A DNA stretch of 64,000 bases from Escherichia coli. GTDB lineage: Bacteria > Pseudomonadota > Gammaproteobacteria > Enterobacterales > Enterobacteriaceae. The position numbers are program-made. Within the stretch, counting starts at the first letter, position 1; each line of letters starts with the position of its first letter. Shown here piece by piece: positions 1 through 3,000 of the stretch. The stretch lies in NCBI RefSeq assembly GCF_003018115.1, contig NZ_CP027457.1, one strand, 5' to 3'.

Positions 1-3000
1 TTCGTTCTAATATTTCAATCCTCAATATAAATAAGAGCAAGGAAGCTTGCCGGTTTTCACCTCTTCATTAATTTGTACATTATTTAAGGTTAACAATGAT
101 GAATAGCTCCATTAAATCGTTTTCCCTGCTGGCGGTTATATTACTGGCTGGCTGTAGCTCACCCGCTTCCCGCATCGCAGATTGCCAGGCGCAGGGCGTC
201 AGCCATGACACCTGTTATCTCGCAGAACAGCAGCGCCAGACGGCTATTTTAAGTGCTTCCGAAGCGCAGGCATTTAAAAATGCAGAAGCCGCACAACACG
301 CCCAGGCGGCAAAGAAAGCCATTTATAAAGGATTTGGCATGACCTTTAGAATGAGCAGTAAAAACTTTGCTTATCTCAATGATTCATTATGTGCAATTGA
401 TGAAGACAATAAAGATGCCACTGTTTATCAGTCAGGTCTATATAACGTCATTGTTTATCATCACACAGGAAAAGTCGCCTTAATGAAAGAAGGCCAGTTT
501 GTGGGTTATTTAAAATGAAGGAGCAAAGGAAAATACCCCTGACGCATATTATGATTATCGGTGCGTTTATTTTTGCCTTCTTGCAAGTAGTATTATTAGC
601 CTCCCTGGTTCACGCTGTGAATGTTAACAACGAAATCCAGGAAGGCTTATTTCAGTCGGGGCGCATTATGATAGAAAGTTTGCAGCATATTCTATCGGTG
701 CAAACGGGGATTCACTGATTTTCACCCCGCCCGATGATGACAGCAGCCAGAGAGATTTTCGATAATCGGGCAGTCGGCGCTGTCATCACCGGGGCAGGCA
801 TTCGCCAGCGCCAGTAGCTGGTTGCGCATAGATTGCAGTTCTTCGATATGCCGTTCGATCTCCGCCACCTTCTCCAGCGTACGACGTTTGACGTCGGCAC
901 TGTGACGCTGCGGGTCGTTAAACAGATTTACCAGCTCGCCGCTCTCTTCCAGGTTAAAGCCCACCTGGCGCGCCTGGCGCAGTAAGGTCAATTCGTTGAG
1001 ATGCTGCTGCGTGTAGGTTCGATAACCATTTTCGCTGCGCATCGGCGGCGTCACCAGCCCCTTCTCTTCATAGAAGCGAATGGCTTTGCTGGTCAGGCCG
1101 GTAATTTTTGCTACATCGCTAATGTTCATCGTTCGCGCAACGCCTCCTGTGCTTTGTTAAAGGGTTTCAACAGATAATCCAGCACGCTTTTTTTGCCGGT
1201 GCGGATATCGACCGTCGCCACCATACCGGGGAATATCGGAAACTGCTGTTTGCTTTTGTTTTCCAGATGGTTGCTGAAAGTGCGAATGTACACCCGATAG
1301 TAATAAACATCGCGCCGCACTTCATCCTGCACGGTATCCGGTGAAATCACCGCCACTTCCCCCGGCAAGCCGCCGTAGATGGAGTAATCGTAGGCAGTTA
1401 TTTTTACCAGCGATTTTTGCCCCGGATGGATAAACGCCACATCGCGCGGGGAGATTTTTGCCTCAATCAGCAGTTGCTCATCCAGCGGCACGATGGTCAT
1501 CAGTTTACCACCGGGGGCAATGACGCCGCCAACCGTGGTGACATCAATATCCTGAACAATGCCTCGCACCGGCGCAGTAAAGTTGAGCCTGGTGAGAGAG
1601 TCTTCCCGTCCACGGATCACCGAACGCTGGGTTTCCACTTCCGCATTGGCTTTTGCTAACTCTTCGCGCGCCTGAACGTAGTATTGCGTGCGCACGTCGC
1701 TGAGTTTGTTTTCCAGTTCATTGGCCTGGCGTTGCAGGCGCAGCACTTCGACGCTGCTCGCCGCCCCCTGTTTCACCAGCGGCTGGGTCATCGCCAGTTC
1801 ACGGTTGACCAGGCTAATCCCCTGCGTCAGCCCGGTGGTGGCTTTGTTCAACCCGTCGCGGCGAGTGTTGTACAACGCCGTTTCCGACTCGATAAGTTCG
1901 GGGAATTTATTCAGTTCGTCAGGGAAGACCAGCGGTTTATTACTCACTTCCGCCCGCAGCCGCGCCGAGGTTGCCAGCGCCGCGTACAGCCGCGACATCG
2001 CTTCCTGGACGTCGGATTCCGTTTTGGTGCGGTTAAGCTGCGCCAGCGGCTGGCCCTGTTCAACAATATCGCCAACCTTGACGTCGAGATGATACAGAAT
2101 TCCGCCTTCCAGCGACTGCACCACCTGTTCGCGCCCGGAGGGTTCTACCGTGCCGCTGCCGGTGGTGACTTCATCAAGCTGGAAGTACCACGCCCAGCCA
2201 AGAAAACAGAGCAGCATCACAGCGGTAACGCGTACCGCCAACGCCGAACGCGGCAGGCGGGGTTCAGTCAGGCCACGGTTATATTGCAGTTGTCCGTTCA
2301 TGCGGCAGACCCCTTATTCTTCTCCTGCAACACCACCCGTCGCGCCGTGGGCTCGCCCTGTTCACGCAAAATGGCCTCTTTCGCGCCGTCCATCACAATG
2401 CGCCCCTGATCCATCACGATTATCCTGTCGACCAGCTGCAGCATCGCCGTGCGGTGAGTGGCGATAATCAGCGTGCGATGCCCAATCCACTGTTTCAGTT
2501 GTTCGATTAAATGCGCTTCTGCCATTTCGTCCAGCGAGGCGCTGGGTTCGTCGAGCAGCACGATATTGGGTTGAGAGATGAGTAGCCGCGCCAGCAGCAG
2601 CGTTTGCCGCTGACCACCAGAGAGGCCAAATCCCCCTTCCTGAATCATGTAGTTGAGGCCGTTTTTCTGCTTCTGCACAAAGGGCAGCGCCCCGCTGAGG
2701 GTTAACGCGCGTTCGATATCTTCATCACTGGCCTCCGGCATCCCCATGGTGAGGTTTTCCCGCAGCGAACCAAAGAACAGTCGCCCGGTCTGGCTGAGTA
2801 GCCCCATGTCGCGGCGCAGATCCGCCGGATCAAGTTGCCCGATGCTGATGTTATCCAGCAGCACCTGCCCCTGTTGGGCGATACGCATTCCGGCGAGCAT
2901 TTGCAGCAGCGTTGACTTACCCGCGCCGTTGCGCCCGAGAATAGCGATTTTCTCTCCGGCCTGAATGTTGAGTTTGCCGATCGCCACATCGGCAATTTTC

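Follow-up and report, generated by a model that had tools for sequence, protein, structure and literature searches.

How is a core copper regulator expressed when its start codon lies across the stop codon of a gene from a horizontally acquired island? The question is raised by a 64,000-nt stretch of Escherichia coli DNA (NCBI RefSeq assembly GCF_003018115.1, contig NZ_CP027457.1; the whole stretch is called the window below), in which cueR, encoding a Cu(I)-responsive MerR-family regulator of 135 amino acids (aa; 722-1129, minus strand), follows the gene for a 391-aa HlyD-family type I secretion adaptor (1126-2301, minus strand; WP_001014327.1), the orthologue of hlyD28/Z0635. The initial annotation of this sequence saw no room for a cueR promoter between the two genes and predicted read-through transcription or translational coupling with the adhesin-secretion operon, unless a promoter sits inside the adaptor gene. 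Taken as a whole, our reading, which we consider probable, is that the overlap is a structural scar and no dedicated regulatory device, that cueR of island-bearing strains has such an internal promoter, and that cueR of island-less strains uses a fossil of the adaptor gene.

The overlap itself is real. Direct reading of the minus strand (1140-1120: GCGCGAACGATGAACATTAGC) places an ATGA at 1126-1129, where the adaptor TGA (1128-1126) overlaps the cueR ATG (1129-1127); the adaptor gene ends in CGA-TGA and cueR opens with ATG-AAC, and our list of open reading frames (ORFs) and the RefSeq coding sequences agree for both genes. The two codons have two bases in common (T and G) instead of the three first counted, while the genes overlap by four. 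CueR was identified over its full length (residues 1-135 of 135) by the equivalog model NF007590 (308 bits, cut-off 244) and by TIGR02044 (206.6 bits, cut-off 147.4), and the adaptor by TIGR01843 (327.7 bits, cut-off 208.65). Both proteins are identical in the O157:H7 strain EDL933.

Probable transcription of cueR from within the adaptor gene

Start sites mapped by Cappable-seq in EDL933 (PMC10469882 supplements) provide the central evidence. A sole start site is associated with cueR (604847-605254) in that dataset, at 604687, 160 nt upstream of the gene; it was detected in 8/8 conditions with a relative read score of 4.2-8.95 and the dataset also enters it as internal to the adaptor gene, at position 1012. 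This position falls on the A of GGGTGTACA in the EDL933 sequence; TACTAT occupies -13 to -8, and a 17-nt spacer separates it from the upstream ATGAAG. A gene-internal promoter is thus backed both by an experimentally mapped primary 5' end within the adaptor gene, in EDL933, and by a correctly spaced -10/-35 pair. Window and EDL933 do not differ anywhere between the start of the -35 hexamer and the cueR ATG, and from this identity the promoter of the window strain would comprise the -35 element ATGAAG (1325-1320), a 17-nt spacer, the -10 element TACTAT (1302-1297) and a start at the A of 1289 (1289-1325 overall, minus strand). When the 330 nt upstream of cueR were scanned with a position-weight matrix, ATGAAG-17-TACTAT ranked top in all five island-bearing E. 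coli sequences, with a predicted start at about -161. The range first considered for an internal start was the last ~100 bp of the adaptor gene; the mapped one does lie inside that gene, at -160, just outside the range named, and the EDL933 data hold no start site in the last 100 nt of the gene.

Sequence conservation points to the same segment. In an alignment of eight island-bearing Escherichia sequences, in which 146 of 371 adaptor codons vary, no invariant stretch of the adaptor gene is longer than a run of 19 codons from -188 to -132 (1261-1317, minus strand; permutation p = 0.008). This run includes most of the promoter spacer and continues over the -10 box and the start site to ~28 nt into the transcript, and the -35 hexamer immediately before it shows no change either. 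A second notable invariant zone, from -27 to +17, surrounds the ribosome site of cueR. Across complete genomes, a 61-nt promoter segment is the same as in the window in 922/958, against 7/951 and 138/955 for two control segments of the adaptor gene, a crude comparison that depends on alleles private to the window strain. Overall, the evidence favours transcription of cueR in island-bearing strains from its own internal promoter over read-through or coupling alone, and of the possibilities raised at the outset it is the promoter inside the adaptor gene that finds support, from the EDL933 start site, the -35/-10 pair and the invariance. We infer a weak, constitutive promoter of the sigma-70 type.

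Could the -160 signal instead be a spurious intragenic start or a processing product, the invariance reflecting a constraint on the adaptor protein or mRNA and cueR being served by other sites? Intragenic start sites are very numerous in the EDL933 dataset, being the theme of that paper (PMC10469882), the score of this one is low, and its -35 hexamer matches at only 3/6 positions. However, Cappable-seq enriches triphosphorylated 5' ends, which argues against a processing product, and the site was seen in every condition. It is also the top-scoring site, with a spacing correct to the mapped base, protein constraint does not explain synonymous-site invariance over 19 codons, and no terminator is predicted between the -160 site and cueR. 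We regard a spurious signal as very unlikely.

Possible read-through and translation at the overlap

As a type of junction, ATGA is ordinary and not beyond chance; it is the position on the native stop of the adaptor that is non-random. Four-nucleotide overlaps occur in 3/25 same-strand adjacent gene pairs of the window, and the junction between the ATP-binding cassette (ABC) transporter gene and the adaptor gene (2301-2298) is likewise ATGA; ATGAAC is read at both this junction and the adaptor/cueR junction. Another ATGA-type overlap joins two hypothetical genes on the plus strand (96-518 and 515-718). At the adaptor/cueR boundary, the ATGA is unchanged in 10/10 aligned Escherichia sequences, K-12 and CFT073 among them, and it has the stop-overlaps-start geometry of translationally coupled pairs (1126-1129).

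The only Shine-Dalgarno-like element before cueR is AGGAGG (1148-1143, minus strand), which the adaptor codons Q-E-A spell out; it lies 13 nt ahead of the ATG, inside the -27 to +17 invariant zone. We considered whether this element had evolved in Escherichia for cueR and rejected the idea, as GAGG-type cores occur in 50 of the 80 adaptor loci described below; they are common because the K/Q-E-A codons are conserved. Folding of the 220-nt leader expected from the -160 start was unremarkable (z-score +1.2), and the centroid structure leaves the ribosome site unpaired, so that an RNA structure hiding this site and enforcing coupling was also rejected. No Rfam family matched around the junction. 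Obligatory translational coupling of cueR to the adaptor is unlikely, since K-12-type strains express cueR without a translatable upstream ORF; the predicted unpaired ribosome site points the same way. Translation of CueR would proceed by fresh initiation at the accessible ribosome site behind AGGAGG; ribosomes ending the adaptor could also re-initiate at the ATGA, which would not be required.

The island in the window is O-island 28 (OI-28) of O157:H7, with tolC28, a giant adhesin, hlyB28 and hlyD28, and its type I secretion operon is complete on one strand. All on the minus strand, the first gene of the island is the tolC28 orthologue, encoding a TolC-family outer-membrane protein (25350-26705; RefSeq, PMC12758282), followed by the gene of the 6925-aa secretion substrate siiEA (4464-25241; 'BapA-related adhesin SiiEA' in RefSeq), the type I secretion ABC permease/ATPase gene, an hlyB28 orthologue (2298-4460; TIGR03375, 837.9 bits, cut-off 693.1), and the adaptor gene. 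This makes cueR the fifth co-oriented gene, as first annotated, and the seventh when ybaT and glsA, in that order upstream of the tolC-like gene, are counted. OI-28 is activated by RstA and Ca2+ via the promoter region upstream of tolC28 and is important for colonisation (PMC12758282); we located the published motif as an RstA box, TAATTCAAATTACC, at 26986-26999 (minus strand). In some island-bearing genomes the secretion genes are decaying: one strain (SCPM-O-B-8794, at 4050-4125 of its own locus) carries a 2-nt insertion (TG) 53 nt before cueR, which truncates the adaptor while the ATGA string is kept, and in strain AF14 the ABC transporter gene is frameshifted.

A minus-strand scan of 1126-2070 detected nothing resembling a terminator ahead of cueR. 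The terminator found behind the adaptor gene in other genera is lacking as well, which makes read-through from the island genes into cueR structurally likely, though not required. With no terminator intervening, the RstA/Ca2+-controlled promoter probably adds some cueR mRNA. How far this contribution goes separates our reading from two others.

One of these would make cueR the effective last gene of the adhesin-secretion operon, fed mainly by read-through transcription from the tolC28 promoter, with termination-reinitiation at the ATGA and CueR dosage tracking RstA and Ca2+. The shared strand, the 4-nt overlap, the lack of a convincing terminator before cueR and the loss of the terminator found in other genera all fit this arrangement, as do the weak internal start (score 4-9) and the suboptimal 13-nt Shine-Dalgarno spacing; the stronger start sites and promoter-improving changes of K-12-type strains, described below, look as if they compensated for lost upstream transcription. 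However, the -160 start is constitutive (8/8 conditions), whereas the tolC28 start was detected in 7/8 conditions in EDL933 (PMC10469882 supplements), and the sequence around the -160 promoter is under selection. The ribosome site is not sequestered in the predicted fold, cueR functions in 82% of E. coli without a translated upstream ORF, and a 26-kb transcript across the 20.8-kb adhesin gene would be an unreliable source for a housekeeping regulator. We think that such membership of the operon is quite unlikely.

The other is a mixed model, in which the -160 promoter sets a basal level and read-through adds a boost when the island is induced, tying copper homeostasis to gut adhesion. It draws on the same strand, the lack of a terminator and the lost hairpin, on the induction of the island by RstA and Ca2+ and its relevance to colonisation (PMC12758282), and on the co-induction of ybaST and cue genes in E. 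coli exposed to acid and copper stress (PMC9628877). On the other hand, cueR has 0 mentions in the OI-28 paper (PMC12758282), and the arrangement is lacking in most E. coli. CueR dosage shifts, if modest, may also not matter. CueR is both repressor and activator at fixed sites, depending on its Cu(I) occupancy. This combination is a minor possibility, and an internal promoter that suffices for cueR, with any read-through dispensable, remains the reading we prefer.

cueR in strains without the island

Searched by megablast with window positions 600-2400, 5,426 complete E. coli genomes yielded the region in 5,424 cases and the full adaptor gene in only 959. In the island-less genomes among the matches listed, homology ends at about window position 1225, ~95 nt upstream of the cueR ATG. 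The junction segment of K-12 was found in 4,459 genomes and is at least 99% identical in 4,426 of these; this uniformity points to a single deletion haplotype of ~25.8 kb, carried by ~82% of complete E. coli genomes. The K-12-type deletion runs from ~30 nt past the ybaT stop (approximate left breakpoint 27012-27016, minus strand, from comparison of the window with K-12) to ~95 nt before cueR (right breakpoint near 1222-1228). Such an event would have taken the island and the -160 promoter in one step while sparing the final ~95 nt of the adaptor gene.

This tail (1130-1224, minus strand) is kept in island-less E. coli, including K-12 and CFT073, where the alignments place it in the promoter and 5' untranslated region of cueR. 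It differs from the island type by a 1-nt deletion and a few substitutions, with the final 55 nt before the ATG identical. In K-12-like and CFT073 records, the NCBI annotation pipeline calls it a 98-bp frameshifted pseudogene that is missing its N-terminus and has the same 4-base overlap with cueR. A boundary of the locus exactly at the cueR start codon, as first proposed, is therefore not seen against K-12, with which homology runs ~95 nt into the adaptor gene; the proposal does hold against homologous loci of other genera, in which the adaptor stop is conserved (76 homologues).

Both strong K-12 start sites map inside this remnant. Cappable-seq of K-12 gives plus-strand start sites at 513102, 513131, 513178 and 513196 (U00096.2; PMC4782308 supplement), that is at -115, -86, -39 and -21 from the ATG at 513217, with scores of 3.7, 49.2, 100.3 and 2.0, respectively (PMC4782308 supplement). 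At the -86 site, TATTAT (-12 to -7; NC_000913.3 513895-513900) lies across the deletion junction, and the -39 site has TTCGCA-17-TGcTTGAAT, with TTGAAT at 513941-513946 of the same record. In our own scoring, the island-type counterpart of the latter, TCCGCA-18-TGGATT, reached 0.64 bits compared to 7.24 for K-12, and three of the four K-12-type changes raised the score and would have strengthened the -39 site. The EDL933 data show no start at the place of the K-12 -39 site (PMC10469882 supplements). Island-less cueR would accordingly be transcribed from -39 and -86, as mapped in K-12; in the majority of E. coli, what remains of a vanished secretion gene appears to serve as the cueR promoter. 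That this promoter had to be rebuilt once the island was gone, producing two new promoters from the last ~95 nt of a dead gene, one at the deletion junction and one sharpened by three small changes, is a further step to which we give even chances.

Several points weigh against this account. The start-site data for island-bearing strains come from EDL933, a strain other than that of the window. The -160 site is weak (score ~4-9) compared to the K-12 sites at -39 and -86 (100 and 49), although the scales of the two studies may not compare, and a weak site fits read-through supplying much of the cueR mRNA in island-bearing strains. The 19-codon invariance could stem from another constraint. The promoter matrix is home-made, and a strict consensus scan, too strict to inform, detected no promoter on the minus strand around the junction, either in the window or in K-12. 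The K-12-type substitutions could also be the ancestral state. K-12 start-site sets also disagree: Kim 2012 lists only -292, inside ybaT, and RegulonDB 10.5 lists -19.

We considered the -292 start of Kim 2012 as the true K-12 cueR promoter and set it aside, since K-12 Cappable-seq fails to reproduce it. The corresponding promoter sequence is conserved with one mismatch at window 27210-27241 (minus strand, inside ybaT), and in island-bearing strains it would face tolC28, not cueR. Mendoza-Vargas 2009 holds nothing on cueR. A sigma-54 binding site has been reported inside ybaT, 679 nt before K-12 cueR (PMC4591121).

Variable DNA also adjoins the other end of cueR. K-12-type homology ends exactly at the final base of the cueR stop codon (window 722). 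In K-12, ybbJ ends 0 nt from cueR; the window strain has ~2.6 kb of extra genes between the two, namely a YadA-family autotransporter adhesin and three hypothetical genes, and CFT073 and some island-bearing strains have a different gene of 1224 nt beside the cueR stop. With homology ending at the stop and ~95 nt upstream of the start, cueR and its leader form a core islet of ~0.5 kb with variable DNA on either side. Within this islet (window 722-1225), identity to the window is 93.7% for the K-12 type and 95.4% for CFT073, and 96-98% among island-bearing strains. For a core gene of E. coli this divergence is unusual, and it suggests old haplotypes linked to presence or absence of the island.

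Origin of the arrangement and comparison with known systems

How the start codon came to lie on the adaptor stop was approached with an adaptor-protein scan of one representative genome per species, from which 80 loci were kept. cueR lies downstream in only three of these, all from Escherichia (E. coli, E. whittamii and E. sp. E1V33), and each has the ATGA. The other 77 loci, at 56-73% identity and including Enterobacter, Cedecea, Lelliottia, Rahnella and Acinetobacter, have no cueR within 3 kb. All 76 readable homologues among these 77 end in EA(L/M/F)RER followed by a stop at the same residue, in agreement with the C-terminus of the window adaptor (AQEALRER); the adaptor stop is at a family-conserved residue, and the cueR ATG therefore lies exactly on its native stop. 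In the two nearest loci examined, those of Enterobacter sp. Ag1 and Cedecea neteri, a GC-rich hairpin follows 7-9 nt past the adaptor stop; it is absent in Escherichia.

A sequence of events can be proposed from these comparisons. The ancestral state would be a divergent copA-cueR pair with no gene in between, as in Salmonella and Klebsiella; in the Escherichia lineage, glsA-ybaT and the island would have come to separate cueR from the copA promoter. In the process the adaptor presumably kept its family-typical C-terminus and stop place and lost the terminator hairpin, its stop codon now being built from the TG of the cueR ATG and the first A of the second cueR codon. Autoregulation of cueR through a nearby CueR box was considered and rejected: the only good box in the window, an exact operator (CCTTCC-N7-GGAAGG at 29466-29484, between glsA and copA), is that of the copA promoter.

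If loss of the island did force the promoter to be rebuilt, the textbook copper regulator of K-12 runs off the fossil of a virulence-island gene. Most of the 124-nt ybaT-cueR spacer of K-12 is what is left of the adaptor gene, which accounts for the 98-bp pseudogene of NCBI, and the locus offers a natural, population-wide example of promoter replacement following deletion. More generally, an absent intergenic spacer need not mean an absent promoter, and the overlap itself is a routine feature. There is also a practical side. As the mapped promoter of cueR lies inside hlyD28, deleting hlyD28 or all of OI-28 in enterohaemorrhagic E. coli (EHEC) or avian pathogenic E. coli may alter copper homeostasis, a possible confounder of colonisation phenotypes. 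In EDL933, the -160 promoter (within window 1126-1325) may be missing from the OI-28 and hlyD28 deletion mutants already published (PMC12758282).

The window locus shares its position, gene order and RstA box with OI-28 of EHEC O157:H7 (tolC28, rtxA28/rtxB28, hlyB28, hlyD28; PMC12758282), a member of the class of giant-adhesin type I secretion loci of the SiiE/BapA/LapA kind. It differs in the adhesin, a single 6925-aa ORF (siiEA) compared to the two genes of the RTX (repeats-in-toxin) type published for EDL933. The published OI-28 work (PMC12758282) considers neither cueR nor a promoter inside hlyD28.

Salmonella and Klebsiella show a simpler context for the regulator. In Salmonella (PMC1526738) and in Klebsiella (KPN_00464/00465; ortholog table of PMC3415461), copA and cueR are direct divergent neighbours without ybaS/ybaT, in keeping with the divergent layout of MerR-type regulators and transporters in general. 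E. coli keeps the same regulator and the same target, whereas glsA-ybaT, joined in island-bearing strains by the 25.8-kb island, stands between its cueR and copA, and this cueR has neither the shared divergent control region nor a CueR box near its own promoter.

Overlapping stop and start codons are a classic feature of trpE-trpD and trpB-trpA. The cueR junction has the identical geometry of ATGA termination-reinitiation pairs, on the same strand and with the TGA nested in ATGA, but cueR is a core regulator and no functional partner of the gene before it, has its own promoter inside that gene, and is expressed normally in K-12, where the upstream ORF is dead. Promoters inside an upstream coding sequence are equally familiar, the main rpoS promoter lying inside nlpD and the internal trp promoter inside trpD. 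Similar to these, the cueR promoter is of the sigma-70 type, sits in the 3' part of a preceding same-strand ORF, makes expression independent of the upstream operon and constrains synonymous sites; unlike them, it resides in an ORF of a horizontally acquired island, and most strains lost it together with that island. Finally, promoters can be born from non-promoter DNA: new promoters arising from few mutations or at a deletion junction are attributed to Yona et al. 2018, as cited within PMC10469882. The K-12 sites at -39 and -86 likewise lie in a dead fragment, one of them with its -10 box on the deletion junction, and cueR would be a natural, fixed example of this kind, as judged by comparison, with a presumed direction of change and selective cause.

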